64,000 bases of DNA from Candidatus Nomurabacteria bacterium (GCA_016699085.1 CP064958.1:196141-260140), one strand, 5' to 3'; shown: positions 1 to 46,318, counted from the first letter of the stretch. Made by a program: numbers and translations. Notes: generated by a model not told the origin, from the letters alone.

Positions 1-346
1 CTCTATTTTCTATATCATTAGATTCTTCCCAATTTCCTTTGGCAATAAGAATATCTCCTTTTTCTAAAATTTCAATTTTTTTATTTATATACGTTGCAAT
101 ACCATAACGCTCCTCTAGTACATCACAAAATTCATAATTATGATTTTCTAGAGAATTTCTAATTTGCTCAAAAAGATCATATTTTACTTCCCGACCTGAA
201 ACCTGAACAAATGCTTGAGAATTTTGGTTCTGCTTATAAATTTCTTGAAAACAAAAGATATCTATCTCATTTTTTCTACTTTCGATAAAGTTCTTTAGTT
301 CAGGCCAGACTCTTCCACCCCATGCATTAAGTGTAATAAGTTTCAT
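1..346 (-). CDS. Endonuclease/exonuclease/phosphatase (EEP) family hydrolase, partial (N-terminal part only; continues off the window)
   Basis: Reverse-strand translation from the ATG at 344-346 gives MKLITLNAWGGRVWPELKNFIESRKNEIDIFCFQEIYK..., with the EEP-type N-terminus and D-x-x-CFQE motif. The ATG overlaps the ileS stop (ATGA). Not in the ORF track because it runs off the window edge. Confidence 0.5.
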   Translation of the reverse strand, partial: MKLITLNAWGGRVWPELKNFIESRKNEIDIFCFQEIYKQNQNSQAFVQVSGREVKYDLFEQIRNSLENHNYEFCDVLEERYGIATYINKKIEILEKGDILIAKGNWEESNDIENR

Positions 347-3300
347 CACTCTATGTTAATCGAAATAATAATTTCTCCAATACTTACTTCTTGTCCATTA
401 TTATCTGCAAACATGACTTCGCCTGCTAATACAGTCTTTTTGAAATCATTCATAAACGGCGTCACGAGTGATTCCGCCTCTGGAGAAATAGTAAGTATAA
501 TGACATCACTTGGTGTAAGACCAGCTTGTTTGCGCAAATCTTGTACTGCTCGGACAAATTCACGATACTCTCCTTCAAGTTTTAACTCCGGCGTAATGCG
601 CTCATCGAAAACAATCACTGGACCTTTCTCAACTGCTTTGACATTAAGCTCATCTTTGATAAGTTCTTTGTATTCATCCGCAAGATCTTCGGTGACGAAG
701 AAGAACGCGAGCGGCTGGCGCACGGGAATATTGGCTTTCTTTCTAAGTGCATTGCCAACCGTGCACAAATCCCGAACTATACCCATATTTTGCAAAATTA
801 CGGGATTAGGTTCTCCAGCTTTTTCTGGCCAATTAGAAAGATGTACACTTTCTACGTCTGCCTCATGTCGTAATCGTTGCCATATATCTTCCGAAGCAAA
901 TGGTGCAAATGGCGCCATCACTTGAGCGAGAGTTTTTAATACTGTATATAATGTTTGCTTCGCATCAACATCACCATCTTTGATGCGATCCCTCGAACGA
1001 CGCAAATACCATGTAGATAGGTCTCCAATAAAGTCTCGAATTGCCCGTACAGGCTCTAGTGCTTTGTATACATCCATCTTTTCTGTCGTAAGTCCCACAA
1101 CTTCATCAAGCCGAGCCAGTATCCATGCATCCAAAACATTTTTAGTCTGTTCACTATTTACTGTTCGCTGTTCACTTTCTGTATCTCTATACAATTCATA
1201 GAATGATAAAATATTGTACAGGAGCCCAAATACTTGCCGTTGGAGTTCCCCCACTGTTCGCTCATCGAAATTCTTGGATTCACCCGGCTGGTTGACTGAG
1301 TACATCCAAAGTCTCAGCGTATCCACACCGTATTTGTTAATCACAGTCCAAGGATCCACAACGTTCCCGATTGATTTCGACATTTTCTTGCCGTCTTTAT
1401 CGAGAATATGCCCGAGACAAATAACATTCTTGTATGCGGTGCCTCGATCCATAAGTACACCTACAGCGAGGAGTGTATAGAACCAACCGCGTGTCTGATC
1501 AATAGCTTCTGAAATAAAATCAGCTGGATAACCTGGACCTTCGACGAAGTCTTTATTCTCAAATGGATAATGATCCTGCGCGAATGGCATAGCACCTGAA
1601 TCAAACCAGACATCCATGACTTCTTTTACCCGGCGGAATTCCTTGCCCTCGTGTTCCAGTACGATTTCATCGATAAATGGCCGATGTGGATCAAGTTCAT
1701 AATTTTCATTGTGAGGAAGTGGTACAAACGGCAAGTCCCTCACCTCAGCATTGTCAAAACGTTTAAATTCTTGGACAAACACGTGAGAATTTGCCGGCTG
1801 GTATTCTTTATTTGTAGGAATAAATAACCCCGCATTCACAAAGAGTGCCCATGCTGGACCACCGTGCGTCACAATTAAAATATTTTTGTTTGTATAGGTT
1901 TTCTCTAAGTCATACAGTACCTTACCTGTACGTCTACCGACATCCTGGAGAGATTCACCACCCGGAATTTTTTCATCAAACCAGCTCTTTCCCTTTTGTA
2001 AAATATACTGGTGATATTCATCCCAGTTTTTGCCATCGAAATCTCCGCCGTCAATTTCGTGCAATTCATCGATATAAATAACCTGATTATTTGAAAGGCC
2101 GAGCTTTTCACGTAATATTTCTGCGGTTTCTTTCGTACGGATAAATGGCGAAGAAACAATGAGATCGATCCTTTTGTCTACTAAGCCTTGAGCCGTGGTT
2201 GCAACTTGCTTTTTACCTTCTACTGTTAAGTGATCATTTTCTTGATTTTTGAAGCTAATCACACCTTCAATATTACCTTCTGTGCCACCATGACGCATGA
2301 CAAAATATTGGTTTCCGGATTTCTTTGTATACTTTTTTAATGTTTCATACGAATCAACTACGAGACTCTCTCCATCGTCCGCAATCCAGATAGGCAGTGG
2401 TGTTCCCCAGTAACGCTCACGAGAAATCGCCCAATCTTTCACTTCACGGATCCACTCACCAAAGCGTCCTTCTTTAGTATGATCCGGCTCCCAATTAATC
2501 TTTTTATTTTCAGCAACCAGCGTATCTCGCAATTCTGACATGCGAATATACCAAGAATCGCGAGCATAGTAGATAAGCGCTGTTTTACATCGCCAACAAT
2601 GCGGATATGAGTGGGTATATTTTTCTTTCTTAAAAAGTAATCCTCGGTGTGCCAAATCTTTGATAACATCGACGGCCGTCTCTTCATCTTTCACAAATTT
2701 ACCCTCAAGAAAATCCGTACCTTTGATAAAATGCCCCGCTTCATCGACAAGGTGGAATTTTGGTAGTCCTACTTTCGTACCAAGCTCGAAGTCTTCTTGC
2801 CCGTACATAACTGCCGTATGCACAATACCCGTACCATCGGTCGTCGTCACAAAATCTGCAGGATACACTTTGTAGGCATTTACTATTTTTTCATCACCAG
2901 CATCAAGATTTTGAAGATATGGGTAGAGAGGTTCATATTGCATGCCAACCATTTCGCTACCCGTATGCTCTGCAACAATTTCATATGGCTCGGCAATAAC
3001 AGATAGACGTTCTTTTGCTAATACCAATATTTCATCTCCGACTTTTGCTTCTACATAGACCACATCTTTACCTACCGCCAAACCAACGTTGCCTGGCAAT
3101 GTCCACGGAGTCGTTGTCCATGCTAGAAAATACCCATTCTCTGTTCCGACAATTTTAAACTTTGCGGTGACTGAAAGATCTGTATCATCTTGATACCCTT
3201 GGGCAAGCTCGTGCGACGAAAGTGCTGTCCCACAGCGAGGACACCATGGTACGACTTTGTAATCTTTATAGAGCAAGCCTTTGTCATTTACTTTCGAAAC

Positions 3301-3828
3301 AATATTCCAAATTGATTCAATAAAATCACTCTTGTAGGTGATGTACGGATTCTTGTGATCTACCCAATACCCGGATCGATCAGTAAATCGTTCCCATTCA
3401 TCGATATACTTCCACACACTTTCACGGCATTTATCATTGAATGCGGCAATACCGTACGATTCGATTTCTTTTTTGGATTTAAGTCCCAATTCTTTTTCGA
3501 CTTGGAGCTCAACAGGCAATCCATGCGTATCCCAGCCACCTTTCCTGCGCACATGGAATCCCCGCATTGTTTTGTACCGTGGAAATGCATCTTTGAAACA
3601 CCGAGGTTCTAGATGGTGAATACCAGGCTTGCCATTGGCTGTCGGCGGACCATCATAGAAAACAAACTCACCTTTTGGAGAATCTTTATCGAGCGATTTT
3701 TGGAAAATAGTATTATCTTTCCAAAACTGCAAAACAGCTTCTTCCCTGCCCGCCGTAGCAGATTTTTCTGCACTGGAGGGACGAAGCGCTGCATCTGATT
3801 TATCCCCTTGTTCATTATCCTCTAACAT
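346..3828 (-). CDS. ileS: Isoleucyl-tRNA synthetase (type 2-like) with an inserted histidine-phosphatase (PGAM-like) domain
   Basis: HIGH-type motif PPTANGKPGIHH, CP1 editing motif TTPWTLPGN, YPHCWRCKTALIY, WAISRERYWGTPLPIW, DVWFDSG, KMSKS. About 175 extra residues (aa ~505-680) carry RHGGTEGN and VTHGGP motifs between the WG-PLPIW and DVWFDSG blocks. Confidence 0.9.
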   Translation of the reverse strand: MLEDNEQGDKSDAALRPSSAEKSATAGREEAVLQFWKDNTIFQKSLDKDSPKGEFVFYDGPPTANGKPGIHHLEPRCFKDAFPRYKTMRGFHVRRKGGWDTHGLPVELQVEKELGLKSKKEIESYGIAAFNDKCRESVWKYIDEWERFTDRSGYWVDHKNPYITYKSDFIESIWNIVSKVNDKGLLYKDYKVVPWCPRCGTALSSHELAQGYQDDTDLSVTAKFKIVGTENGYFLAWTTTPWTLPGNVGLAVGKDVVYVEAKVGDEILVLAKERLSVIAEPYEIVAEHTGSEMVGMQYEPLYPYLQNLDAGDEKIVNAYKVYPADFVTTTDGTGIVHTAVMYGQEDFELGTKVGLPKFHLVDEAGHFIKGTDFLEGKFVKDEETAVDVIKDLAHRGLLFKKEKYTHSYPHCWRCKTALIYYARDSWYIRMSELRDTLVAENKKINWEPDHTKEGRFGEWIREVKDWAISRERYWGTPLPIWIADDGESLVVDSYETLKKYTKKSGNQYFVMRHGGTEGNIEGVISFKNQENDHLTVEGKKQVATTAQGLVDKRIDLIVSSPFIRTKETAEILREKLGLSNNQVIYIDELHEIDGGDFDGKNWDEYHQYILQKGKSWFDEKIPGGESLQDVGRRTGKVLYDLEKTYTNKNILIVTHGGPAWALFVNAGLFIPTNKEYQPANSHVFVQEFKRFDNAEVRDLPFVPLPHNENYELDPHRPFIDEIVLEHEGKEFRRVKEVMDVWFDSGAMPFAQDHYPFENKDFVEGPGYPADFISEAIDQTRGWFYTLLAVGVLMDRGTAYKNVICLGHILDKDGKKMSKSIGNVVDPWTVINKYGVDTLRLWMYSVNQPGESKNFDERTVGELQRQVFGLLYNILSFYELYRDTESEQRTVNSEQTKNVLDAWILARLDEVVGLTTEKMDVYKALEPVRAIRDFIGDLSTWYLRRSRDRIKDGDVDAKQTLYTVLKTLAQVMAPFAPFASEDIWQRLRHEADVESVHLSNWPEKAGEPNPVILQNMGIVRDLCTVGNALRKKANIPVRQPLAFFFVTEDLADEYKELIKDELNVKAVEKGPVIVFDERITPELKLEGEYREFVRAVQDLRKQAGLTPSDVIILTISPEAESLVTPFMNDFKKTVLAGEVMFADNNGQEVSIGEIIISINIE

Positions 3829-7159: not shown

Positions 7160-8872
7160 CTACATTTTTTCTGGGACTTGTATGCCCAAGAGCCCTAGCC
7201 CATTTTTCATGACTATTGTAAAAGATTTTGTTAGAGCGATTTTGTATGGTGAATATTCATCAGTAGTATCGACAATCGGTGTTTCTGCATAAAAGCTATT
7301 AAACGCACTCGCAAGCTCTATCAGATACGTCGCTATGTGGTGTGGCGCATAACTCTCCCCTGCACGTACAACAATTTCAGGAAAACGATAGAGCAAGTGT
7401 TCGAGTAAACTAACTTGGCTTGGTGCTTGGCCTGCATCGATTGCAATCCCCTCTGCTTCAGCTTTCCGCAAAACTGACTTGGCGCGCGTCGCACTGTATT
7501 GAAGATAGGGTCCTGAATCACCCTCAAAAGAAATCGACTTGTCGAAATCATAGACTATATCGCCACCAATAGCCGAACGCAGAATCGCATATTTGATTGC
7601 CGCAACCGCCACTTGCGTGACGACTTCCTCGCGCTCAAATGCAGTAAATGCCCGCCCCTGAACACGCTCAAGGATCACCTGCATTGCTTCATTGAGTAAC
7701 GACTCACCGGTAACCACATTACCTTTACGTGAGGCCATTTTGCCTGATACGAGGCGCATCATGCCGTTGGTGATATGCATCGTTCTATCTGCCCACAATG
7801 GCTCAATTTGGCGCATAGCCTCTTTGACCACTTTCATATATTCACCTTGCTCAACAGCTGTCGTAACAATAGAGAGATCAGGGTTTTCATACGCAAATTT
7901 CTGCTTAGTCAAACCAAGCTCTTTGGTCTCATAGGTTGGTAGCCCTTGAGAGTTCACGAATACGCGTGTGTGAAGCGCTGGGTTATATTTCTCACCGTGA
8001 AAGACAACTGCTCCATCACTTTTCTCAAAAATTCCTTTCTCGAGATATTCATTCACTATCGCAAGACCGATCGGCGCCATCTCACTTTCAAAAAAAGAAT
8101 AATCAAACTTTGTTCCGAGTATTGTGTAGAGTGATTCAAATGCAGCAAGTGTTACACCTCTGCCCCAGTCATAAAGCTCGTTGATTTTGTCTTCACTTCG
8201 ATCGTAGATTTTTTTATTAATCGCATCTATTTCTTTTTTAGCTTCAACATCATTTTCGTATGCATCGTTACCTTTGGCATAGCATTCGCCGATATAGAGT
8301 GCTTGCGCCGATATAGCTTCGAGTTCAGCTGGCGTAGGATTTTTCATGAGACCATATATCGCTTTCGCTACGTGTGGTCCGACGTCACCTTGGTAGTTGG
8401 CACGGATTACTTTGGCACCGTGGTATTCGACAATTCGTGAAATGGATTCACCAATCGCATTCGTCATTAAATGTCCAATATGAAATGGCTTAAATGGGTT
8501 CGGTTGCGTATACTCAACCATGACTTTTTTCCCAGAAAGTATTTCGTTTTTACCATAGTTTTCATGTGCCTTGAGTATTGCCGCAACTTCATTTGTAAAA
8601 AATTCTCTACTCAAGTAGAAATTAATAAATCCAGGACCTGCAATTTCGATTTTCTCGATTTCTGGCAGTTTAGTTTTCTCAAGTTCAGTAAGTATAAGCT
8701 TGGCAACGTCTTGTGGAGATTTGCCGAGTGGTTTTGCAAGTGCGAGTGCAACATTGGTCGAGTAGTCACCATGAGCAAAATCCCCGGGGTGGTCGAGTTT
8801 TATCTCTGATTCGCCAAGGTCAAGAGCTGTGAGGGCGGATTGTATAAAGGTTTTAATAGTGTCAGCAACCAT
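7160..8872 (-). CDS. argS: Arginyl-tRNA synthetase
   Basis: Class I HIGH variant PNPFKPFHIGHLMTNAIGES and overall ArgRS architecture at 570 aa. Confidence 0.9.
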   Translation of the reverse strand: MVADTIKTFIQSALTALDLGESEIKLDHPGDFAHGDYSTNVALALAKPLGKSPQDVAKLILTELEKTKLPEIEKIEIAGPGFINFYLSREFFTNEVAAILKAHENYGKNEILSGKKVMVEYTQPNPFKPFHIGHLMTNAIGESISRIVEYHGAKVIRANYQGDVGPHVAKAIYGLMKNPTPAELEAISAQALYIGECYAKGNDAYENDVEAKKEIDAINKKIYDRSEDKINELYDWGRGVTLAAFESLYTILGTKFDYSFFESEMAPIGLAIVNEYLEKGIFEKSDGAVVFHGEKYNPALHTRVFVNSQGLPTYETKELGLTKQKFAYENPDLSIVTTAVEQGEYMKVVKEAMRQIEPLWADRTMHITNGMMRLVSGKMASRKGNVVTGESLLNEAMQVILERVQGRAFTAFEREEVVTQVAVAAIKYAILRSAIGGDIVYDFDKSISFEGDSGPYLQYSATRAKSVLRKAEAEGIAIDAGQAPSQVSLLEHLLYRFPEIVVRAGESYAPHHIATYLIELASAFNSFYAETPIVDTTDEYSPYKIALTKSFTIVMKNGLGLLGIQVPEKM

Positions 8873-8931: not shown

Positions 8932-10107
8932 TTATTTTTGTCGTAATACTTTATCGATCTTCCTCGCTATAGTTAGCATATCTTTTTCTTTTTTGCCTCT
9001 AGTTGTCTCAGCTGGAGTACCGAGTCGTATGCCTGAAGGATCCATCACACCACGAGGATCTTGAGGAATGGTATTCATGTTCACAATAATACCTGCACGT
9101 TCGAGGCGATTACTAGCGTCTTTACCTGAAACCCCCTCACCATTCATCCACGTATCCATGAGAATAAGATGTGAATCTGTTCCTCCTGAAATTATCCGCC
9201 AGCCGAGTTTTTGAAGTTCTTTAGCAAGTGCAGCCGCATTTTTAACAACTTGCTTGGCATACTTTTTATATTCAGGTGTCATGGCTTCTTTGAGTGCAAC
9301 TGCAACACCTGCAATATTATTCTCATGCGGACCACCCTGAAGACCTGGGATAATAACCTTATCGATTTTCTTATCAAATTCTCGCGCATCGCGCTTTACG
9401 AATATCATCGCCGAGCGCGGTCCACGAAGCGTCTTGTGTGTCGTCGTTGTGACAATATCTGCATATGGAAATGGTGATGGATATACCCGACCTGCTACGA
9501 GTCCTGCAAAGTGGGACATGTCGACCATAAGAAGTGCATCTGAAGCATCAGCAATCTCACGGAATTTCTTGAAATCAACGATTCGCGGATATGCAGTAAA
9601 ACCCGCAACGATAATATTTGGCTTTTCTGCGATAGCGATTTTCTTCAGTTCTCCGTAATTCAATAATTCAGTTTTCGGATCTACTTCATACGGCACCTGC
9701 TTCCAGAATTTACCTGTCATTGAGACACTCTGTCCGTGGGTCAAATGTCCACCGGAGGAGAGCTTCATACCCATGATCTTGCCACCTGGTGGTACAAGTG
9801 CAGCATAGACAGCAAAGTTTGCTGGTGATCCAGAAAGCGGTTGTACATTCACATGCCATTTTTCTGGTGTAAGTCCAAAAAGTTTGAGTGCTCGTTCGAT
9901 CGTCAAACTTTCAACTTGGTCAATAATACTATTGCCGCCATAGTAGCGTCGTCCTGGATACCCTTCAGCATACTTATTGGTAAGCTCTGAACCCAATGCT
10001 TCGAGCACATCTTTGGAGACATAGTTTTCTGAGGCAATCAAATTAATCACGCTTTTTTGGCGCTTTTTCTCCGCATCGATTAATTTTTTGATTTGAATGT
10101 CTTTCAT
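8932..10107 (-). CDS. glyA: Serine hydroxymethyltransferase
   Basis: LIASENYVS, TTTTHKTLRGPR, PLP-lysine context. 391 aa. Confidence 0.92.
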   Translation of the reverse strand: MKDIQIKKLIDAEKKRQKSVINLIASENYVSKDVLEALGSELTNKYAEGYPGRRYYGGNSIIDQVESLTIERALKLFGLTPEKWHVNVQPLSGSPANFAVYAALVPPGGKIMGMKLSSGGHLTHGQSVSMTGKFWKQVPYEVDPKTELLNYGELKKIAIAEKPNIIVAGFTAYPRIVDFKKFREIADASDALLMVDMSHFAGLVAGRVYPSPFPYADIVTTTTHKTLRGPRSAMIFVKRDAREFDKKIDKVIIPGLQGGPHENNIAGVAVALKEAMTPEYKKYAKQVVKNAAALAKELQKLGWRIISGGTDSHLILMDTWMNGEGVSGKDASNRLERAGIIVNMNTIPQDPRGVMDPSGIRLGTPAETTRGKKEKDMLTIARKIDKVLRQK

Positions 10108-10527
10108 TTATTTTCCAGTGCTCCCAAACCTGCCTTCACCTCGAACAGATTCAGAGAGTGCATCAGCTTCTTCCAATGTTGCAATCGTAACAGGGAAAAG
10201 TATAAGCTGAGCTATTTTATCTCCTATCTCTACGGTATATGCTTCCTTGCCTACATTCATAAGCTGGACGTTGTATTCGCCTCGATATCCAGCATCATAC
10301 ACTCCACCCATGGTGTGGAGACCTTTCTTGGCCATACCGCTTTTATCTTTAACGATGGCAGCATACCCTTCTGGAAACTCTAATGCAAATCCAACAAAAA
10401 ATATGTGCTGATCGCCTGGTAATAAAGTCATTGATTCCCGAGAATACATATCAAGACCAACATCTCCAGGATGACTATAGCTTGGTAACTTAGTATCCGA
10501 ATATAGTTTTTTTATTTTTAATAACAT
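10108..10527 (-). CDS. dut: dUTP pyrophosphatase (trimeric dUTPase)
   Basis: GDVGLDMYS, KSGMAKKG, GVYDAGYRGE and C-terminal RGEGRFGSTG motifs. Confidence 0.9.
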   Translation of the reverse strand: MLLKIKKLYSDTKLPSYSHPGDVGLDMYSRESMTLLPGDQHIFFVGFALEFPEGYAAIVKDKSGMAKKGLHTMGGVYDAGYRGEYNVQLMNVGKEAYTVEIGDKIAQLILFPVTIATLEEADALSESVRGEGRFGSTGK

Positions 10528-10565
10528 AGCTTAATCTTAACAAAAAAGTTGAAATAGTAAGATTT

Positions 10566-10595
10566 GACAAGTTATTTTTTAAAGTGTAAGGTGAA
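10566..10595 (+). promoter_or_regulatory. Candidate sigma70-like promoter for the thyX-like gene
   Basis: TTGACA, 17 nt spacer, TAAGGT, located upstream of the 10611 ATG in the divergent dut/thyX intergenic region. Confidence 0.25.
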
Positions 10596-10610
10596 GACAA
10601 ATTTAAAAAC

Positions 10611-12053
10611 ATGAATAACGAAACAAGTGACAATTCTTTTGTTGTAAATCTTGAAGCAAACGCACTTCACCGAAAAAATGCAATCGAGTTTGCAATAAAA
10701 CACATTTCAACTGATAAACGGATTATAGTTGTTGATGGTCTTGATCCTCAAGACAATGCAATGATTCAGGCAGTTTTATCTCGTGACCCAAAAAGTGTTC
10801 TCCCTCATCTAGAGAAACTCAAAAAGGAAGGTTCTGGAAAAATTATGGGACTCTTTTATGTAGGTTATGGCCATGGATCAATAGGTCAATGCGGACATAC
10901 AACAATCTTCTTTGAAAATGTCTCAATGCTGGTTGCGAAAGCTGTGCAAGATTCAATAATGTATATTGGGCAAGAATCAAGTACTCGTTATCTAAATATG
11001 TCATTGCAGGCAACAAAAAATCCCGCCGGAACAATCTTCGGAGAAAATCTGCAAAAAGAAAGCATGGATTTCTATGAACAAATTCTTGCTGATCTTATTC
11101 CAGAGCTTACTGCACGTTTCCCAATGCCTGAACATAACGAAACTGATGTAGACAAAATACAGAGAAAAGTAACAGACTACAAAAAGAGTATCAAAGCAAA
11201 AGCATTTGATATTGCGCGAGGTTTCTTGCCAGCTGGAGTAACTACATATGTTAGTTGGCATACTAGCCTTCAAAATGCTAAGAAGCAATTGGATTACTTA
11301 ACGCAACATCCTGTGGCTGAAGTATCTGTACTTGCAACACAAGCTATGCAAGCAATGAAAGAAGTGTACCCAGAAAGTTTTGGACACAAAGAACATCCAG
11401 AACAAACTGTCTATCTTGCTCATCTTGCTGGGAAATATGCTTATTGGGATTTAAAATATGATTCATTTTCTATTTTAAAGAATACGCTGAGCCCACATGA
11501 ATTATGTCAATATGAAGAATTAATGACGAAACGACCTGAGTACGCCGAATTACCTTCTTTCTTAAATGAATGCGGACAAATTCGTGCAACATTCCCACTT
11601 GATTTTGGATCATTCCGGGATATGCAGCGGCATAGACCATGGGTAAATAAAATGCCTTTGCTGCATACTGATTTCGGATTTTTTGAATGGTATTTGGAAC
11701 AGCTACCACAAGTACTTCGTAATAGAGCCGAAAAACATTTGGAGAAATTCGAAGCAAATCTCCAGGAAATAAAACTATCCCGAGAAGAGCTACAGAATTA
11801 CATACTTATGGGTTATACGGTGCAAACACAAACAACTGGCGGATTGCCACAATATGTGTATGTTTGCGAATTACGTACAAAGCAAACAGTACATCCAACT
11901 TTCAGAAAACCTGAACAACAAATGGCCACATACCTACAAGAGTGGTTTAAGGAAAACGTTGGATTTGATCTCCCATTATATGTAAACATGGATACGGATG
12001 AATTCAGTACGAAACGCGGAACACAGGATATTGTGAAGAAAGAAGTTATATAG
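10611..12053 (+). CDS. thyX: Flavin-dependent thymidylate synthase ThyX-like, tandem two-domain (pseudo-dimer) form
   Basis: N-half has GHGSIGQCGHTTIFFENVS and ESSTRY (matching the ThyX S-x-RY part) but lacks RHR. C-half has SFRDMQRHRPW (RHR present, serine part absent). 480 aa is about twice a canonical ThyX. Confidence 0.6.
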   Translation: MNNETSDNSFVVNLEANALHRKNAIEFAIKHISTDKRIIVVDGLDPQDNAMIQAVLSRDPKSVLPHLEKLKKEGSGKIMGLFYVGYGHGSIGQCGHTTIFFENVSMLVAKAVQDSIMYIGQESSTRYLNMSLQATKNPAGTIFGENLQKESMDFYEQILADLIPELTARFPMPEHNETDVDKIQRKVTDYKKSIKAKAFDIARGFLPAGVTTYVSWHTSLQNAKKQLDYLTQHPVAEVSVLATQAMQAMKEVYPESFGHKEHPEQTVYLAHLAGKYAYWDLKYDSFSILKNTLSPHELCQYEELMTKRPEYAELPSFLNECGQIRATFPLDFGSFRDMQRHRPWVNKMPLLHTDFGFFEWYLEQLPQVLRNRAEKHLEKFEANLQEIKLSREELQNYILMGYTVQTQTTGGLPQYVYVCELRTKQTVHPTFRKPEQQMATYLQEWFKENVGFDLPLYVNMDTDEFSTKRGTQDIVKKEVI

Positions 12054-12059
12054 AAAACA

Positions 12060-12094
12060 CCCGGGATCAACTGATCCCGGGATTTTTATTTTTC
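12060..12094 (+). terminator. Rho-independent terminator (possibly bidirectional)
   Basis: CCCGGGATCAACTGATCCCGGG hairpin followed by ATTTTTATTTTT. Confidence 0.6.
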
Positions 12095-12099
12095 TGTCT

Positions 12100-12696
12100 C
12101 TATTTGTTTTCTTCAATTAAAATAAGTGCGAAAAGTGCATAATTAGCTATATCCATATAATTTTGGTCGATCCCTTCTGAGCTACCCGACCCATTAGATT
12201 CCATTTGTCGAATACGGATAATCTTTACCAAAATTTCGTCTGTTATACTCGGTATTCTCATCTGTCGCCACGCTTCACCATAATCATGATTTTTCTTTTG
12301 CATTAATTCGAGGATTGCTTGGCGATATTTTTTAAATGAAGCTAGTATCTTTTCCTTACTAACTGACTCAGGAATGATTGTGTTACCAATTTCAAGCTGC
12401 ATTAAACTACAGATAGCATAATTAAGAATACCTTGAAATTCATCTTTGATCGAATTCCCTTTTCCTTCAACCAATTGCTCTTTCTGTATTTGCAATGACC
12501 GGATTCGATTGGCTTTAATAAACAATTTATCAGTTAAAGATGAAGGCCGGTACCAAAGAAATGATGCATTATAGTCACCTAATTTTGATTCAAAAATACT
12601 TTGAGCAAGGTCAAATTGTTCCTTGTACTGAGCATCCGTATTAGTTTTCATAAAAACAGTTTCACTAACATTATCTTGTTCAATGCAAAAAGTCAA
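12100..12696 (-). CDS. Hypothetical all-alpha protein, possibly a nucleotide pyrophosphohydrolase-like (DUF1599-like) protein
   Basis: 198 aa, motif HDYGEAWRQMRIPSITDEILVKIIRIRQME. Sits between thyX-like and dCTP-deaminase-like genes. Assignment is by weak recollection only. Confidence 0.25.
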   Translation of the reverse strand: MTFCIEQDNVSETVFMKTNTDAQYKEQFDLAQSIFESKLGDYNASFLWYRPSSLTDKLFIKANRIRSLQIQKEQLVEGKGNSIKDEFQGILNYAICSLMQLEIGNTIIPESVSKEKILASFKKYRQAILELMQKKNHDYGEAWRQMRIPSITDEILVKIIRIRQMESNGSGSSEGIDQNYMDIANYALFALILIEENK

Positions 12697-12699
12697 AAC

Positions 12700-12730
12700 C
12701 CGACCTTTTGGTCGGGTTTTACTCTAAAAA
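12700..12730 (-). terminator. Rho-independent terminator
   Basis: Minus-sense AAACCCGACCAAAAGGTCGGGTTTT. Confidence 0.55.
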
Positions 12731-12733
12731 AGT

Positions 12734-13879
12734 TTAGAGTATGAATTGTTTTGCGAGTCTGGCACCAATCTGCTTTGCATATGTTCCGCTTGTTTGAGCA
12801 TATAATTGGCTTGGAATATCCGCCATTTGCTCAAATTGCAATGATACAATTGGTTGTCCGTGATATAAACAGGTTTTCTCATAGACTCTAACTTCCAAAG
12901 TCATAGTATTACCCAATGTTTGATCATCAAAGCAATATCCAAATCCAGGATCAAAAAAACCAGCATAATGAGTTCTAAACTCCCCAAATCGTTCATCGAT
13001 TGCTTTTACTTCTGCGGCAAATCCAGGCGGAATCGAAATACGCTCAGGTGTGGAAAGGATGTAGAATTTATCTGGGTCAAGTTCAATATATTTTGCTTTT
13101 TTAATTGGCTCAAAATATTTTTCCCATGACAAACAACTTATACCTCCCAAAGGAACTTCTGTTTTTGCTTTCTTTGCTTCATACCCAATAATATCTGTTT
13201 CATCATGACCCAAGCAATCAACCGAGAAAAGAATGTACCCATGATCTCCACCGCCTGTAAGAAAACCTCCATCAAGCACTGGTTCATCGTACTGATTTTT
13301 CAGCATGTGAAATTTAAACTGCAGTGACATAATCTCAAGCTCTGAGAGTCGAGTATCACTTGTCATTATACGCAACTGACTAGCTGAATCCTTGCCTGGT
13401 ACATATGATATTGGAAATACTTGGGGTCGTAATAAATTCCAATGCTGACCAGACCACCCATGTGGAATTGAATCATATTGAGCAACACTATCTGCAAGTA
13501 ATCTGGCATGAAGAAATGTTCTGCCGGTTGTAGACTTAGGATTTGCATATCCGTAAATCTGACTTGGAAAATTAAACATTTCTTCATGTAACACTAGATA
13601 CTTTTCCCCTGGAATAAGCGTGCCACCTTTATGACGTACACCACCCATTTCATTTTTTATAAGCTTGTACACACTTTCTCCTGGCTTAGGAAATATTACT
13701 CTTTTGATTTTATAGCACTCTTCACTTAATACCAGATCAAGAGATGCTGGCCCAGGTGTTACTTTTGAATTTCGTATGAAATATGCTTCTTTCATTGCAT
13801 TTATAGTCTGGTACGGCAAAGCTCCATGACCATCCTCAATAAGCCTTAATTCTTTTGTTTTCATAGAATTGATTTGCAC
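12734..13879 (-). CDS. dCTP deaminase-like protein, large duplicated-barrel (DCD family-like) form
   Basis: GFFDPGFGY matches the dCTP deaminase/dUTPase motif-3 pattern G-x-[IF]DPGF-G. 381 aa length is consistent with the long DCD-type proteins. Confidence 0.5.
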   Translation of the reverse strand: MQINSMKTKELRLIEDGHGALPYQTINAMKEAYFIRNSKVTPGPASLDLVLSEECYKIKRVIFPKPGESVYKLIKNEMGGVRHKGGTLIPGEKYLVLHEEMFNFPSQIYGYANPKSTTGRTFLHARLLADSVAQYDSIPHGWSGQHWNLLRPQVFPISYVPGKDSASQLRIMTSDTRLSELEIMSLQFKFHMLKNQYDEPVLDGGFLTGGGDHGYILFSVDCLGHDETDIIGYEAKKAKTEVPLGGISCLSWEKYFEPIKKAKYIELDPDKFYILSTPERISIPPGFAAEVKAIDERFGEFRTHYAGFFDPGFGYCFDDQTLGNTMTLEVRVYEKTCLYHGQPIVSLQFEQMADIPSQLYAQTSGTYAKQIGARLAKQFIL

Positions 13880-13950
13880 TCACCCTACCAAAAAAAACAC
13901 CTAATTACAAGAAATAGAAAAACGGCATCATGTATCATGATGCCGTTTAC

Positions 13951-14397
13951 TTATTTCGTGAATCCTTCGGGGATAGGTACTTCTTTTTCTGCGAAATATT
14001 TCTCCCATATTTTATTCAATTCTTCAATTATGTGAGATACATTCGTGTAACTCACAAAAGTGTAGTTATGCCTCTTCCTCTTGTACGTCCGCACAAAGAC
14101 ACTGCGTTCACCGTAACCCGCCTCAGAAATCGCGAGGACATATTTCTGACTGGCAGCGTGCATCGTCAGCATCCCTACTTCATTTGACGGTACCGTCATA
14201 ATTGAAACAACAATGTCAGCCTTTTCGATAAGGCCGAGTTTCACTTCAATAAACTTTTCATGGTCAAACATTTCAGGCATTGCGACAAATTCATATTTCT
14301 CTTGTTGCAAGATATATTCCTTTAACTCATTAATTTTATCCTGAAACCAGGGTTCAATTTTGCTGGTTGCATGAAGAAGAAGGATTTTTATTTTCAT
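13951..14397 (-). CDS. Nucleoside 2-deoxyribosyltransferase / DNPH1(Rcl)-like protein
   Basis: ADIVVSIMTVPSNEVGMLTMHAASQKYVLAI aligns with the DNPH1 core ADVVVAEVTQPSLGVGYELGRAVALGKPIL. 148 aa Rossmann-like. Confidence 0.5.
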   Translation of the reverse strand: MKIKILLLHATSKIEPWFQDKINELKEYILQQEKYEFVAMPEMFDHEKFIEVKLGLIEKADIVVSIMTVPSNEVGMLTMHAASQKYVLAISEAGYGERSVFVRTYKRKRHNYTFVSYTNVSHIIEELNKIWEKYFAEKEVPIPEGFTK

Positions 14398-14507: not shown

Positions 14508-15464
14508 TTAATTATACTGTTCAAGCACTTGCTCCTCAACATTTGAGATTTGTAGAATGCCACCAGAAATATCAGAGACTTTGACTCCACCTATCATTGC
14601 TGTTATGCCAATTTTGTAGGTCCCATTTTCAAGGGTTGTCGGAAGGACGACATTTTCAGATTTATCCATGATGGTACTTGAGACAACGGTGGTAATTTTA
14701 CCAGTTTGTTGATTGCTCATTTGGATTGTTCCTGTACTAGTACCTGCGATATTACACGTACTCCATCCCACATAAAGACCAGCACCAGCAGACGCACTTA
14801 GGATTTGACCTGGATTTAATGAATTAATTTTGAGTTGGGGAACTGATGGCTGGCAACCAGTGGTAAAAGAGAGAATTTCTCCTTGCTTTATTGTTGAACC
14901 ATACTTTGCATAGGCTTGGAAGTAATATGTTTTGTTGTTTTGAATCAATGCTGGTCCGATAAGAAATGCAGCAGTATTCATATTGCCTACTGCATAACCG
15001 GATGTTTTATGAGACAAGTTAGTTTGTGATGTTCCCCATTGAAACCATTGCTGAGAAGGCTTGGTGCCTGCATACGTGGCATTTAAGCTAGCCCAATCAT
15101 ATCCTACACCTGATACAGCCTTAGTAACTATAGTTCCAGCCTGACCAGTACTTCCTATCTCTCCTCCAGTTGTCTGACCAGATGTTGTTCCACTTGTACC
15201 AGATCCATTAGAAATAGTGCCTGCAGAACCAGAAGTTGTAGAGCCACCTGTTGTAGCGATACCACCCGCCCAGCCATCAAGTTCAGGATCACCTCCCTCA
15301 AGAATATCTTTTTTCCAATCATTATAGACCAAACCTTCCTGATTTGCCTGACGATCAGAAATATTGATAAATATAAAATATCCTGCGATTGCAATAATGA
15401 CAATCAAGAGAAAAACTCTGACCGAACTGTATTGTGGATCTTTAAAAAAATTCATAATAAACAT
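14508..15464 (-). CDS. Membrane-anchored or secreted Gly/Thr/Ser-rich protein
   Basis: N-terminal TM/signal segment, then a long low-complexity G/T/S region and a C-terminal beta-rich domain. Confidence 0.4.
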   Translation of the reverse strand: MFIMNFFKDPQYSSVRVFLLIVIIAIAGYFIFINISDRQANQEGLVYNDWKKDILEGGDPELDGWAGGIATTGGSTTSGSAGTISNGSGTSGTTSGQTTGGEIGSTGQAGTIVTKAVSGVGYDWASLNATYAGTKPSQQWFQWGTSQTNLSHKTSGYAVGNMNTAAFLIGPALIQNNKTYYFQAYAKYGSTIKQGEILSFTTGCQPSVPQLKINSLNPGQILSASAGAGLYVGWSTCNIAGTSTGTIQMSNQQTGKITTVVSSTIMDKSENVVLPTTLENGTYKIGITAMIGGVKVSDISGGILQISNVEEQVLEQYN

Positions 15465-44247: not shown

Positions 44248-45504
44248 TTATTTGTTGTTTATAATATCTTCGATTTCCATAAGTCTATTATATTTGCAGA
44301 CTCTCTCAGCACGAACAAGTGATCCCGACTTAATATAGTCACTGGCAAGTCCAACTGCAAGATCGGCAATAAACGTATCTGTCGTGTCACCGGATCGATG
44401 GGATACAAACGGAGACCAGCCCTGCTTTTTTGTCAGCTGAATCGCCTCTATAGTTTCAGTCAACGTGCCAATTTGATTTGGTTTGATAAGCACAGCATTG
44501 ATCGCCTGTTTGTCGATAGCAACTTGTATTCTTTTACTATTTGTCACCGTGAGATCGTCGCCAACGATTTTTATCTTGTCGCCCAATCTTTTTCTCATTT
44601 CGACAAAACCCTCCCAGTCGTCCTCTGCTAGACCATCCTCGATAGAAATAATTGGATGTCTTTCGATCAATTCCTCATACCAATCAATTACTTGATTGGT
44701 TGTTCTATCTGCGCTTTCTCCTGCAATTTTCAATCGGTATATACCATTCTTATAGAAACTCGATGCAGCCGCGTCTATTGCGATCTTAACCTGGTCTAAT
44801 GTGTAGTTAGCAGCTACAATCGCCTCTTCAATAAGTTCCAATGCCTCTTCAGAGGTTGTGAGTCTTGGCGCAAAACCACCTTCGTCGCCGACACTTGTTG
44901 TATAACCCTTAGATTTCAATATCTTTTTCAATGACAAAATGATTTCCCCCGTAGCTTGCACTTTCCGACGGAAAGAATCAAAACCAATGGGAGCAAGCAT
45001 GAATTCCTGAATATCTAAGCCACTATCAGCATGCTTGCCACCATTAATAACATTAAACATTGGTTGTGGAAGTTTAAAGGTCATGGTACTCCCCAGTCCC
45101 CCCAAATATTCGTACAGCTCAACCTTTTGCTCTTCTGCACAAGCACGGGCAAAAGCCAAGGAGACTCCGAGAAGTGCATTTGCACCGAGGCGTGATTTGT
45201 TTTCCGTACCATCTCGCTGAATTAGAGCCATATCGAGACTAGTCTGATCAAAGTCTTTATCTTTGATAGACTCATAAATTTCTGTATTTACATTTTCGAT
45301 AGCTCTAAGTACGCCGAGTCCTCCGTATCTGCTCTGATCGTGATCACGCAATTCAAGAACCTCATGAACTCCAGTACTTGCTCCGGAGGGGACAGATGCC
45401 TTTGCCATCACACCACCGCGCGAGAGTGTACAGCAAACCTCTAACGTTGGATTGCCACGGGAATCGATAATCTCTTTTGCTGTAACTGATTGTATCTTTG
45501 CCAT
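44248..45504 (-). CDS. eno: Enolase
   Basis: MAKIQSVTAKEIIDSRGNPTLEV and full-length enolase signature regions. Confidence 0.93.
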   Translation of the reverse strand: MAKIQSVTAKEIIDSRGNPTLEVCCTLSRGGVMAKASVPSGASTGVHEVLELRDHDQSRYGGLGVLRAIENVNTEIYESIKDKDFDQTSLDMALIQRDGTENKSRLGANALLGVSLAFARACAEEQKVELYEYLGGLGSTMTFKLPQPMFNVINGGKHADSGLDIQEFMLAPIGFDSFRRKVQATGEIILSLKKILKSKGYTTSVGDEGGFAPRLTTSEEALELIEEAIVAANYTLDQVKIAIDAAASSFYKNGIYRLKIAGESADRTTNQVIDWYEELIERHPIISIEDGLAEDDWEGFVEMRKRLGDKIKIVGDDLTVTNSKRIQVAIDKQAINAVLIKPNQIGTLTETIEAIQLTKKQGWSPFVSHRSGDTTDTFIADLAVGLASDYIKSGSLVRAERVCKYNRLMEIEDIINNK

Positions 45505-45505
45505 A

Positions 45506-46318
45506 TTATATGCTTTTCAGTTGGTTAAAAGTGACACTACCAGAGAGATGTTTCTCTGCTTCAATAATAATTTTCTCCATCATTATTACCGCTTCGACTG
45601 GATACTTACCTTTTGCTGTTTCGTCCGAAAGCATAACTGCATCAGCACCCTCGAGTATGGCAGTAGCCACATCGGTCACTTCCGCCCGAGACGGTGTAAG
45701 GTTTTCTACCATAGAAAGAAGCATCTGGGTAGCGACGATGACAGGTTTGCCTGCTTTTCGTGCTTTTTTGATTATCCGATCTTGTATAAACGGTATCTGT
45801 TCGAGAGGCACCTCATTGCCGAGATCGCCACGGGCTATCATAACAGCATCAGCTTCGGCAATAATCTGTTCGAGTGACAGAAGTGCTATAGCTCTTTCTA
45901 TTTTTGCTATTACCATCTGCCTACCTCCAAAACCATGCACCAATCCTCTACATTTTTTTATATCCTCCGGACCAGCGACGAAAGAAACAGCTACGTAGTC
46001 AACAGCATGAAGAGCAGCAAATTTTATGAACTCCTCATCATTGCTCGTAATCGATGAGAGCGCTCGAGAGTCATACGTATGACTCTCATTTTCCTGGACC
46101 CGAGGACCAGGTAAGTCGATGATAATCGGAATTCGCCGACCACATTCTTTTTCGAGTTGTCGTATAAAAGTGATTTGTTCTGCCCATAAGGCGAGATCGC
46201 CCCAGGAAAAGTTAAGTCTCACCACATCTAGCTGGTGACTCACCATCGCCCTTAGGATGTCTGCTTTTTCTGACACCGGACCGAGTGTGACTACAATTTG
46301 TGCTTTGGAATTTGTCAT
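45506..46318 (-). CDS. pyk: Minimal pyruvate kinase (A-domain barrel only; B lid and C-terminal domains absent)
   Basis: KAQIVVTLGP, VRLNFSWG, MIARGDLG, ATQMLLSM, MLSDETAKGKYP. Only 270 aa. The B-domain position is filled by a short linker. Confidence 0.65.
   Translation of the reverse strand: MTNSKAQIVVTLGPVSEKADILRAMVSHQLDVVRLNFSWGDLALWAEQITFIRQLEKECGRRIPIIIDLPGPRVQENESHTYDSRALSSITSNDEEFIKFAALHAVDYVAVSFVAGPEDIKKCRGLVHGFGGRQMVIAKIERAIALLSLEQIIAEADAVMIARGDLGNEVPLEQIPFIQDRIIKKARKAGKPVIVATQMLLSMVENLTPSRAEVTDVATAILEGADAVMLSDETAKGKYPVEAVIMMEKIIIEAEKHLSGSVTFNQLKSI

Follow-up and report, generated by a model that had tools for sequence, protein, structure and literature searches.

RESULTS AND DISCUSSION

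Organization of the locus

The window analyzed here is a 64-kb stretch of a chromosome of Candidatus Nomurabacteria (CPR). Reading its ORFs recovered, between positions 8932 and 14397, all six genes that an initial annotation had described at these coordinates. The leftmost is glyA (8932 to 10107, minus strand), which encodes a serine hydroxymethyltransferase (SHMT) of 391 amino acids and whose start abuts the stop of dut (10108 to 10527, minus strand; trimeric dUTPase, 139 amino acids), the gap between the two genes being 0 bp. Direct reading of the sequence places an AT-rich divergent intergenic region of 83 bp (10528 to 10610) between dut and the only plus-strand gene of the set, which encodes a double-length ThyX of 480 amino acids (10611 to 12053). 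The other three genes lie on the minus strand and encode a tandem DUF1599 protein (12100 to 12651; 183 amino acids from the likely ATG at 12651), a two-domain dCTP deaminase (DCD) of the 2R9Q/PRK07559 type (12734 to 13879; 381 amino acids), and a 148-amino-acid near-orphan with the DNPH1/MilB/nucleoside 2-deoxyribosyltransferase fold (13951 to 14397).

The SHMT and dUTPase calls of the initial annotation are borne out by scores above the curated cut-offs in both Pfam and NCBIfam. SHMT matches PF00464 with 537 bits and, over its full length, NCBIfam PRK00011/NF000586 with 527.6 bits (cut-off 335), and its family membership indicates that it would supply 5,10-methylene-THF. The dUTPase matches PF00692 (92.4 bits), NCBIfam dut NF001862 (114.2 bits; cut-off 103), and TIGR00576 (113.7 bits; cut-off 102.55).

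The right-hand part of the island is rich in terminator-like hairpins, which flank each of the 148-amino-acid, DCD, and DUF1599 genes. One, with a 9-bp stem containing 7 GC pairs and with T-runs on both strands, lies where thyX and DUF1599 converge (12060 to 12081) and would be bidirectional. The second (12694 to 12721, minus strand; 12-bp stem) separates the stop of the DCD gene from the ATG of DUF1599, and the third, again bidirectional (13920 to 13948; 13-bp stem), lies between the 148-amino-acid gene and the DCD gene. The region holds 12 terminator-like sites, compared with 4.2 ± 2.3 in shuffled sequences. Since the hairpins separate these three genes, their position does not imply co-transcription, and hence does not imply a functional coupling of the accessory genes. 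The dut/thyX intergenic region contains a single sigma-70-like match (10549 to 10578, plus strand), and matches in the promoter scan were not enriched relative to shuffled sequences. The GC content of the region is slightly low (0.365 to 0.375, versus approximately 0.40).

Double-domain ThyX and dCTP deaminase

The 480-amino-acid protein exceeds the Pfam cut-off for Thy1 (PF02511; 45.6 versus 24.8 bits) over residues 68 to 255 only, and it falls under the TIGR02170 thyX equivalog cut-off (20.8 versus 87.9 bits). HMMER searches with the protein alone or with its family profile gave no match to solved ThyX structures. Long ThyX proteins of 430 to 490 amino acids, this one among them, form a family that is common in CPR (1432 matches), with named members from Parcubacteria, Paceibacterota, and Peregrinibacteria. 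A domain-duplicated ThyX from Chloroflexi was noted in 2009 as uncharacterized (PMC3224940).

The two halves were aligned separately to the ThyX of T. maritima (TM0449, PDB 1O26) using hhalign, which gave weak alignments (E values of 0.0055 and 0.33). In the N-terminal half, this weak alignment pairs H53, E86, S88, R90, Y91, and R147 of TM0449 with H88, E122, S124, R126, Y127, and R203; the S124-T-R126-Y127 motif is kept, and D114-S115-I116 replaces RHR. The C-terminal half keeps RHR (R340-H341-R342) and lacks S-x-RY, and motif matching within a nonsignificant alignment (E value, 0.33) pairs its R422 and H428 with R174 and H178. The contiguous RHR-x7-S-x-RY signature was not found in either domain and is complete only across both halves. 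Equivalents of all the residues considered in the canonical homotetrameric enzyme are thus present somewhere in the polypeptide, but distributed over two ThyX-like halves, with RHR in one and S-x-R-Y in the other. The protein, which the initial annotation rightly described as ThyX-like and of double length, appears to be a fused duplicate whose halves carry complementary parts of the active-site motifs. In the subclade of the window protein, S219 and Q221 stand at the N-half positions of the FAD-contacting N163 and R165. Family membership, together with the conserved neighborhood of tmk, dut, and glyA in relatives, suggests that it methylates dUMP to dTMP in an FAD- and NADPH-dependent manner.

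A similar architecture is found for the deaminase, which matches the Pfam families DCD_N, DCD_C, and DCD (81, 145, and 110 bits, respectively) and aligns collinearly over its full length with PDB 2R9Q from Agrobacterium (E value of 4.8e-47, residues 43 to 379). The two proteins have in common the DCD_N and DCD_C architecture and the HYAGFFDPGFG and LEVR motifs. The window protein differs in coming from a CPR bacterium and not from a proteobacterium, and in scoring below the NCBIfam PRK07559 equivalog cut-off (229.6 versus 283 bits). The GFFDPGFGY motif by which it had been labeled dCTP-deaminase-like lies at approximately residues 307 to 315. It belongs to the C-terminal domain, where FFDPGFG begins at residue 308 and TLEVR at residue 327, which makes E329 the catalytic Glu of the TLE motif. 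The N-terminal domain keeps PKSTTGR (114 to 120) and has NLLRP in place of TLE. This DCD, too, appears to be a fused duplicate, the halves of which have lost complementary catalytic motifs, and by its family it is predicted to deaminate dCTP to dUTP. To our knowledge, no member of the 2R9Q family has been characterized biochemically. Both ThyX and the two-domain DCD are probably pseudo-heteromers in which only half as many active sites are formed as usual. A secondary and more speculative point is that the CPR ThyX and the two-domain DCD could be pseudo-heteromers of an obligate kind, each made of duplicates that are half dead in complementary ways.

Conservation of the island in related bacteria

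The island occupies a slot between argS and rplK-nusG-secE that is common to many CPR relatives, in which it contains the same core genes together with tmk, encoding thymidylate kinase. The arrangements include a co-directional L11-DCD(376 amino acids)-thyX-glyA-tmk-dut-argS array (locus L151), argS-x-glyA-tmk / thyX / DNPH1-like-dCMP deaminase (L001), L11 / DCD / DNPH1-like / thyX-tmk-glyA-argS-ndk (L112), and tmk / thyX-DCD / L11-nusG-secE (L113 and L114). The neighbors of long-ThyX genes were also counted in 33 metagenome loci with a length of 9 kb or more, and they included L11 (20 loci), dut (19), dCMP deaminase (18), tmk (14), argS (11), SHMT (10), and some DCD (9). The recurrence of the enzyme set in the equivalent syntenic slot of dozens of related contigs indicates that the clustering is not due to chance. 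Unlike the islands of these relatives, that of the window has thyX inverted and is devoid of tmk. Given that tmk was not found anywhere in the 64-kb window, the last step, the formation of dTDP, would have to be encoded elsewhere.

Taken together, these genes very probably direct the synthesis of thymidylate de novo by the "dCTP route." Families and conserved synteny are direct results of the tools used, and the enzymatic activities are predicted from family membership. The two-domain DCD would convert dCTP to dUTP, which the trimeric dUTPase would hydrolyze to dUMP and PPi. The fused double-domain, flavin-dependent ThyX would then convert dUMP to dTMP, using methylenetetrahydrofolate regenerated by SHMT. 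The DUF1599 and 148-amino-acid genes would be accessories with an uncertain role. The four reactions, assigned by family, are those that Dcd, Dut, thymidylate synthase, and GlyA carry out in the de novo dTMP pathway of the Gram-negative type. This is, however, a clustered version of that pathway, in which ThyX takes the place of ThyA and both Dcd and ThyX are double-domain fusions. The island is therefore essentially ordinary and present in related bacteria, with the exception of two poorly understood add-on genes. Of the proposal that the cluster serves both dTMP synthesis and salvage, the first part is supported by these consecutive steps and by the similar content of the slot in relatives, whereas the salvage component is probably not a working N-glycosidase (see below).

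dCTP deaminases also serve defense, through the depletion of dCTP, and the long deaminase and its neighbors could in principle form an anti-phage nucleotide depletion system. The terminators around the DCD gene and the slightly low GC content of the region speak in its favor. We nevertheless give this explanation hardly any credence, as no protein of the island is matched by PADLOC models and the DCD is homologous over its full length to the 2R9Q/PRK07559 family, which is of the housekeeping type, and lacks the regulatory, kinase-like domain that characterizes DCDs used in defense. Moreover, relatives carry the two-domain DCD inside the tight array from L11 to argS described above.

The 148-amino-acid DNPH1-like protein

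The description of the 148-amino-acid protein as DNPH1-like holds at the level of fold and homology. It has the flavodoxin-like NDT fold (DNPH1/MilB/nucleoside 2-deoxyribosyltransferase), its best structural match is MilB, a hydroxymethyl-CMP hydrolase, and it is related by profile homology (E value of 2e-7) to the DNPH1-like genes in the islands of relatives. A profile search of 13951 to 14397 gave no PF05014 match, and a relative's protein (L112:2698-3153) reached 24 bits against this family, below the cut-off of 28.8. The Glu of the P-S-x-G-x-G-x-E helix start is present in all seven island DNPH1-like sequences. In the window protein this nucleophile (PSxGLGxE) is replaced (PSNEVGMLTM), as it is in protein P0241 (PSTEVGILIA), and inspection of the sequence showed no Gly-rich phosphate loop at the N terminus. 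A single homologue was found among 1.84 billion representatives, and its gene adjoins DHFR. DNPH1-like genes adjoin thyX in 5 of 80 metagenome loci, in addition to L001 and L112. The protein most likely represents a degenerated version of the dNMP N-glycosidase (DNPH1-like) kept in the islands of relatives, with the glycosidase activity probably lost.

The initial annotation had also raised the alternative of modified pyrimidines. Under this explanation, the island would make a noncanonical pyrimidine, for example 5-hydroxymethyl-dU, 5-hydroxymethyl-dC, or a base modified beyond these. The ThyX-like protein would then be a hydroxymethylase, DCD and Dut would tune the nucleotide pools, and the NMAD1 (DUF1599) and MilB/DNPH1-like proteins would be modification accessories, in parallel with MilA/MilB and with phage hypermodification. 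Such a role would be compatible with the structural match to MilB, with the divergence of ThyX below its equivalog cut-off, with the substitutions at the FAD site, and with the Pfam name of DUF1599, which goes back to a predicted link to nucleotide modification. However, the missing Glu argues against a functional hydrolase, and the long-ThyX family is widespread in CPR, typically together with thymidylate kinase, dUTPase, SHMT, and dCMP/dCTP deaminase, neighbors that argue for dTMP as the product. In addition, among the island genes and the other ORFs of the window (best 25 of 64 families), neither a hypermodification family nor, in or next to the island, a dedicated dNMP kinase, a glycosyl-, amino-acyl-, or methyltransferase, or a DNA glycosylase-like gene was found. 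PADLOC gave no match, and no kinase, transferase, defense, or mobile-element signature of such a system was found. The locus is chromosomal with housekeeping flanks, not phage, and for the most part its genes fall into standard families with similar arrangements in ordinary relatives. We therefore consider the synthesis of a modified pyrimidine highly unlikely and retain dTMP as the predicted product.

The DUF1599 protein

The ORF at 12100 to 12696, previously left without assignment, consists of two repeats (153.6 bits, Pfam) of DUF1599/PF07659 (NMAD1), a family of Bacteroidota and phages. Read mechanically, it extends to a TTG at 12696. The ATG at 12651 is favored as the start because the hairpin at 12694 to 12721 overlaps the TTG, and the resulting 183-amino-acid version is identical to an NCBI protein of Candidatus Nomurabacteria encoded on a contig of 808 kb. 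In an alignment of 57 sequences, the invariant motifs KNHDYGEAWR, TD..I.K..R, and SEG.D...D..NY are kept, and the first repeat departs from the family at two nearly invariant positions, W31 and R32.

DUF1599 was compared with the all-alpha NTP pyrophosphatases (MazG, dimeric dUTPase, HisE, and AF0060-like proteins). Foldseek gave no significant match (best E value of 0.44, TM below 0.32), and the DUF1599 profile HMM found no match in the PDB. When aligned by hhalign with MazG of E. coli and with a MazG profile from enterobacteria, itself of low diversity, it gave E values of 0.5 to 0.6. The EExxE...ExxD metal-binding motif of these pyrophosphatases does not occur in DUF1599, which has K/R residues in the helix (TDQ.fIKAnRIR) aligned with the EExxE helix of MazG.

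Bacteroidota proteins of 180 amino acids are approximately 50% identical to the window protein. Their genes are accompanied by folP (divergent, 24 of 67 loci), MauE/DoxX (59 of 69), and tpiA, and by folE in P. gingivalis; no dut, thyX, DCD, or SHMT gene was found within 6 kb in 80 loci. This is in contrast with the window, where the neighbors are thyX and DCD, and it fits the explanation that the DUF1599 and 148-amino-acid genes are unrelated passengers in a recombination-prone argS/rplK slot, with a module made up of glyA, dut, thyX, and DCD only. The hairpins bracketing each accessory gene point in the same direction, as do the presence of DUF1599 in just 1 of 80 long-ThyX loci and the highly variable content of the slot. 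Here the slot holds a 318-amino-acid secreted protein, in L111 it has a cytidylyltransferase-like gene together with DHFR, and in L116 its only gene is DUF1599 (L11-DUF1599-argS). On the other hand, nearly all entrants into the slot are related to thymidylate or folate, the 148-amino-acid protein is homologous to the recurrent DNPH1-like genes of the islands, and its sole homologue adjoins DHFR. Furthermore, DUF1599 has come independently to adjoin thyX or dUTPase genes elsewhere. L127 carries DUF1599-thyX-dCMP deaminase on one strand, a lineage of PolB viruses shows dUTPase-DUF1599 in 69 of 80 loci, and the arrangement in Asgard wyrdviruses is dUTPase-ThyX-DUF1599 (bioRxiv 10.1101/2021.07.29.453957). 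On balance, we regard the passenger explanation as less likely than not.

With low confidence, DUF1599 is most likely a helper protein that binds nucleotides or pterin phosphates in dUMP/dTMP/folate metabolism and that may resemble all-alpha NTP pyrophosphatases. A candidate activity could be that of a dimeric-dUTPase-like all-alpha pyrophosphatase acting on dUTP or dCTP or, in the case of Bacteroidota, on dihydroneopterin triphosphate. That DUF1599/NMAD1 is a previously unrecognized accessory enzyme or subunit of this metabolism is a speculative proposal, on which we would place only a minor share of our confidence, and it is the most useful lead to come from the island. If true, it would explain the four contexts in which the domain is found, namely, folP/folE in Bacteroidota, the dUTPase of the PolB viruses, the dUTPase and ThyX of the Asgard viruses, and the thyX islands of several CPR bacteria.

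Gene content and transcription units of the island

An ORF scan recovered the six genes of the initial annotation at the same positions, next to argS (7160-8872, minus strand), and profile searches assigned a family to five of them. These are glyA, encoding SHMT (8932-10107, minus strand; 537 bits); dut, encoding a trimeric dUTPase that scored above the NCBIfam equivalog cut-off (10108-10527, minus strand); a Thy1/ThyX gene of 480 aa, matched over its N-terminal half only (10611-12053, plus strand; 45.6 bits); a 198-aa ORF with two DUF1599 domains (PF07659, “nucleotide modification associated domain 1”; 12100-12696, minus strand; 153.6 bits); and a 381-aa dCTP deaminase (DCD) with DCD_N and DCD_C domains (12734-13879, minus strand). 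The sixth is a 148-aa ORF (13951-14397, minus strand), beyond which the ORF scan placed a 318-aa protein (14508-15464, minus strand), then rplK, nusG, and secE. The N-terminal segment of the 318-aa protein is hydrophobic, and a long stretch of it is rich in Gly, Thr, and Ser; the protein matched no Pfam family and is absent at the equivalent position in relatives (e.g., loci L112 to L114). The GC content, about 0.40 in the window, dips slightly to 0.365 to 0.375 across 10 to 14 kb. An RNA element or riboswitch was also considered and dropped, since the Rfam matches in the window were tRNAs only.

The only contiguous genes of the island are dut and glyA. Terminator-like hairpins occupy the gaps between thyX and the DUF1599 gene (12060-12081, bidirectional), between the DCD and DUF1599 genes (12694-12721), and between the 148-aa and DCD genes (13920-13948), and the region holds 12 terminator-like sites versus 4.2 ± 2.3 in shuffles. 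Given these hairpins, the accessory genes look like separately transcribed cassettes within a variable slot, and their adjacency therefore has limited power as proof.

A thymidylate island typical of the lineage

The long ThyX-like protein has 1432 homologues of 430 to 490 aa, the few named ones belonging to Parcubacteria, Paceibacterota, and Peregrinibacteria. A metagenome scan with the alignment of this family yielded 547 confirmed loci, of which 80 were analysed. Of these, 33 span at least 9 kb; they contain L11 (20 loci), dut (19), dCMP deaminase (18), tmk (14), argS (11), SHMT (10), and a dCTP deaminase (9). In relatives, locus L001 reads ileS-argS-x-glyA-tmk, then thyX, then DNPH1-like-dCMP deaminase; locus L112, whose ThyX is 66% identical to that of the window, reads secE-nusG-L11, a 142-aa gene, DCD, DNPH1-like, and then thyX-tmk-glyA-argS-ndk; and loci L113 and L114 read tmk, then thyX-DCD, then L11-nusG-secE. 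Locus L151 is a co-directional array of nusG-L11-DCD(376 aa)-thyX-glyA-tmk-dut-argS, and L193 shares its core order.

From these neighborhoods, including the two arrays, the window island is, as judged by gene order, a rearranged copy of the lineage-typical one. With respect to the relatives, thyX is inverted, tmk is missing, and three genes are additional (those of DUF1599, the 148-aa protein, and the 318-aa protein). No tmk, dCMP deaminase, DHFR, ndk, or canonical DNPH1-like gene was found elsewhere in the 64-kb window. The plain reading as a dTMP island is thus supported by both profile families and synteny: glyA, dut, thyX, and DCD fall into standard families, and ordinary relatives keep their orthologues in the same order. 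As a gene cluster, the island is of a known kind and serves ordinary housekeeping. On established knowledge of these families, DCD would convert dCTP to dUTP, Dut would convert dUTP to dUMP, and ThyX would methylate dUMP to dTMP with methylene-THF supplied by SHMT, which would give this reduced CPR bacterium a self-contained route from dCTP to dTMP kept in one place. The slot between argS and rplK is a hotspot for swapping thymidylate and folate genes, those exchanged being tmk, dut, DCD or dCMP deaminase, DHFR, DNPH1-like, and DUF1599.

Double-length ThyX and DCD

The ThyX-like protein scored far under the TIGR02170 cut-off. Searched against solved structures, it gave no match with phmmer, and the long-ThyX family profile matched no solved ThyX with HMMER. 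Each half of the family alignment was then aligned separately with the Thermotoga maritima sequence identical to 1KQ4/1O26. The N-half aligned over 196 columns (E 0.0055) and holds equivalents of H53, E86, S88, R90, Y91, and R147 (H88, E122, S124, R126, Y127, and R203, respectively), with D-S-I at the position of R78-H79-R80. The C-half aligned weakly (E 0.33), with RHR two residues out of register; motif matching on this weak alignment shows R340-H341-R342 kept, R422 and H428 matching R174 and H178, and S-x-R-Y missing. N163 and R165 contact FAD in T. maritima ThyX; at the equivalent residues, 219 and 221, the window protein and its subclade (P0121 to P0124) have S and Q, as against N and R in the other long-ThyX proteins.

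The window DCD aligned over its full length with PDB 2R9Q (E 4.8e-47), a structural-genomics entry titled “2'-deoxycytidine 5'-triphosphate deaminase.” Compared with the single-domain DCD of a relative, the N-domain keeps the nucleotide-binding motif PKSTTGR (residues 114 to 120) and has NLLRP in place of the catalytic T-L-E, and the C-domain keeps FFDPGFG and TLE (E329) and has DERFGEFR in place of KSSxGR. A defensive role for this deaminase is not supported: PADLOC returned no match, the domain architecture is that of the housekeeping 2R9Q enzymes, and relatives carry this gene within the biosynthetic array (e.g., L151).

Active sites are located at subunit interfaces in both ThyX tetramers and DCD/dUTPase trimers. 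Together with the complementary loss of motifs in the two fused duplicates, this suggests, on alignments that are weak, that the fused ThyX and the fused DCD may be pseudo-heteromers with half as many sites. Since ThyX is a drug target, a naturally half-site ThyX, if true, would be informative. To our knowledge, neither a solved structure nor an assay exists for the fused ThyX family found across CPR; this family and the fused DCD, with their putative complementary half-sites, are worth retaining. A domain-duplicated ThyX was described in Chloroflexi in 2009 as “not characterized” (PMC3224940).

The 148-aa protein and its DNPH1-like relatives

The 148-aa protein is a near-orphan: HMMER, run in full against 1.84 billion representatives, gave one real homologue. 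This homologue (P0241, 144 aa, 57% identity) is encoded on a 2-kb contig of a close relative, where rplK and a DHFR gene flank it (L111:265-2058), and the visible L11 fragment of that contig is nearly identical to the window L11. The slot after rplK there holds the 144-aa homologue, DHFR, and then a cytidylyltransferase-like gene. Set against the window, this content indicates that the argS-rplK slot gathers differing folate and thymidylate genes from strain to strain.

A phmmer search of the 148-aa protein against solved structures gave no match, and AlphaFold models it (pLDDT 76, pTM 0.75) as an alpha/beta fold with five strands. The islands of relatives encode proteins of 140 to 170 aa with a clear DNPH1-like signature (..PSxGLGxE..), found in L001, in L112, and in five of the 80 metagenome loci; one of them gave a sub-threshold match to PF05014. 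A profile of seven such proteins aligned collinearly with the window protein and P0241 over 113 columns (E 2e-7, probability 93.7%). The Glu of the signature acts as the nucleophile of NDT/DNPH1 enzymes. All seven relatives have it, the window protein (PSNEVGMLTM) and P0241 lack it, and the N-terminal strand of the window protein has no Gly-rich phosphate loop. The label “DNPH1-like” in the initial annotation thus holds for fold and homology; as read from its sequence, the protein has most likely degenerated or been re-purposed and is not a working dNMP N-glycosidase. What deserves keeping is a DNPH1-like accessory of CPR thymidylate islands, present in the window only as this Glu-less near-orphan. 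The DNPH1-like genes adjoining thyX suggest, short of establishing, that dNMP sanitation or recycling is tied to thymidylate synthesis.

The missing nucleophile also bears on the more exotic alternative raised from the sequence, that the island encodes a modified-pyrimidine pathway. The MilB-like 148-aa protein lacks the nucleophile; dedicated kinases, transferases, and glycosylase-like genes are absent from the island and its flanks among the matches listed, and the usual partners of the long-ThyX family include thymidylate kinase. This alternative is therefore not supported.

The DUF1599 protein

Read from the ATG at 12651, the DUF1599 protein is 100% identical to a Candidatus Nomurabacteria protein encoded on an 808-kb contig, and the window is therefore chromosomal DNA from a CPR bacterium. 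A search for the family gave 2242 proteins, almost all of them tandem repeats of ∼180 aa with ∼50% identity to the window protein, and the named ones are from Bacteroidota (e.g., Porphyromonas gingivalis, Prevotella, Flavobacteriia, and Hymenobacter). A scan with one genome per species gave at least 597 loci, and almost all of the 80 loci retained bear Bacteroidota titles; the protein is kept across this phylum, including Porphyromonas, Prevotella, and Bacteroides. Invariant charged residues are numerous in the alignment and group into two equivalent motif sets, K..DYG.aWR...TDQ..IKA.RIR...EG...EF....NY and KNHDYGEAWR...D.I..K..R....SEG.D...D..NY. AlphaFold models two four-helix repeats with high confidence (pLDDT 91). 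The two DUF1599 matches give a family to the protein described earlier as unknown and all-alpha.

No match to solved structures was obtained with phmmer, or with the profile HMM even at E values up to 10, and Foldseek of the model against PDB gave nothing significant. With hhalign, E was 0.51 against Escherichia coli MazG and 0.6 against a MazG profile, the latter a weak negative given that the profile held only enterobacterial MazG of ≥80% identity; a MazG-seeded viral scan gave 2 loci only. PHROGs lists DUF1599 as phrog_1485, function unknown, and the literature on DUF1599/NMAD1/PF07659 is sparse, with functional data in none. The description “NTP-pyrophosphatase-like” is hence a lead, not a finding.

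In Bacteroidota, the gene upstream of DUF1599 is folP in 24 of 67 loci, as a rule in divergent orientation. On the downstream side, 59 of 69 loci have a gene for a MauE/DoxX membrane protein and then tpiA, to which P. gingivalis adds SPOR and folE. The 80 Bacteroidota loci examined have no thyX, dut, DCD, or SHMT gene within 6 kb of DUF1599. In a viral PolB lineage, dUTPase is followed by a single-domain DUF1599, with stop/start overlap, and then by PolB (69/80 loci). The 80 viral loci, from a scan with single-domain DUF1599, form one lineage (71 to 100% identity), so that this adjacency counts as one event and not many. A dUTPase-ThyX-DUF1599 block is reported in Asgard wyrdviruses (preprint, bioRxiv 10.1101/2021.07.29.453957). 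Among CPR loci, L127 has dut on the minus strand, then DUF1599-thyX-dCMP deaminase on a single strand, and L116:226-2511 reads nusG-L11-DUF1599-argS, a slot without thymidylate genes in which DUF1599 is retained alone; DUF1599 was found in 1 of the 80 long-ThyX loci.

The common denominator of these contexts is deoxyuridine, thymidylate, or folate metabolism, recurrent but sparse. They point to nucleotide or folate chemistry without establishing it, and the recurrent link of DUF1599 to dUTPase, ThyX, and folP merits keeping. That the DUF1599 and 148-aa genes are mere passengers in the slot is the less likely reading but a viable one. In the Chryseobacterium jumbo phage MA9V-2 (L115:8004-9413), two DUF1599 domains are fused to a C-terminal region of ∼280 aa, next to a clamp-loader gene; this region has no Pfam domain, and the fusion is therefore uninformative on DUF1599.

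Other genes of the window

The window ileS (346-3828, minus strand; 1160 aa) carries an inserted histidine-phosphatase domain (His_Phos_1) at residues 509 to 664 that separates the two halves of its catalytic domain, and this architecture recurs in the ileS of the relative's locus L001 (L001:157-3777; 1206 aa). A Pfam match to CDPS (cyclodipeptide synthase; E 1.8e-27) was found among 51 other window ORFs; the ten mid-sized ORFs that were scanned one by one did not include it. At 45506-46318 (minus strand), the match to the pyruvate kinase barrel spans model positions 171 to 328 only, and pyruvate kinase may accordingly be split over the adjacent minus-strand ORFs 44248-45504 and 45506-46318, or frameshifted.
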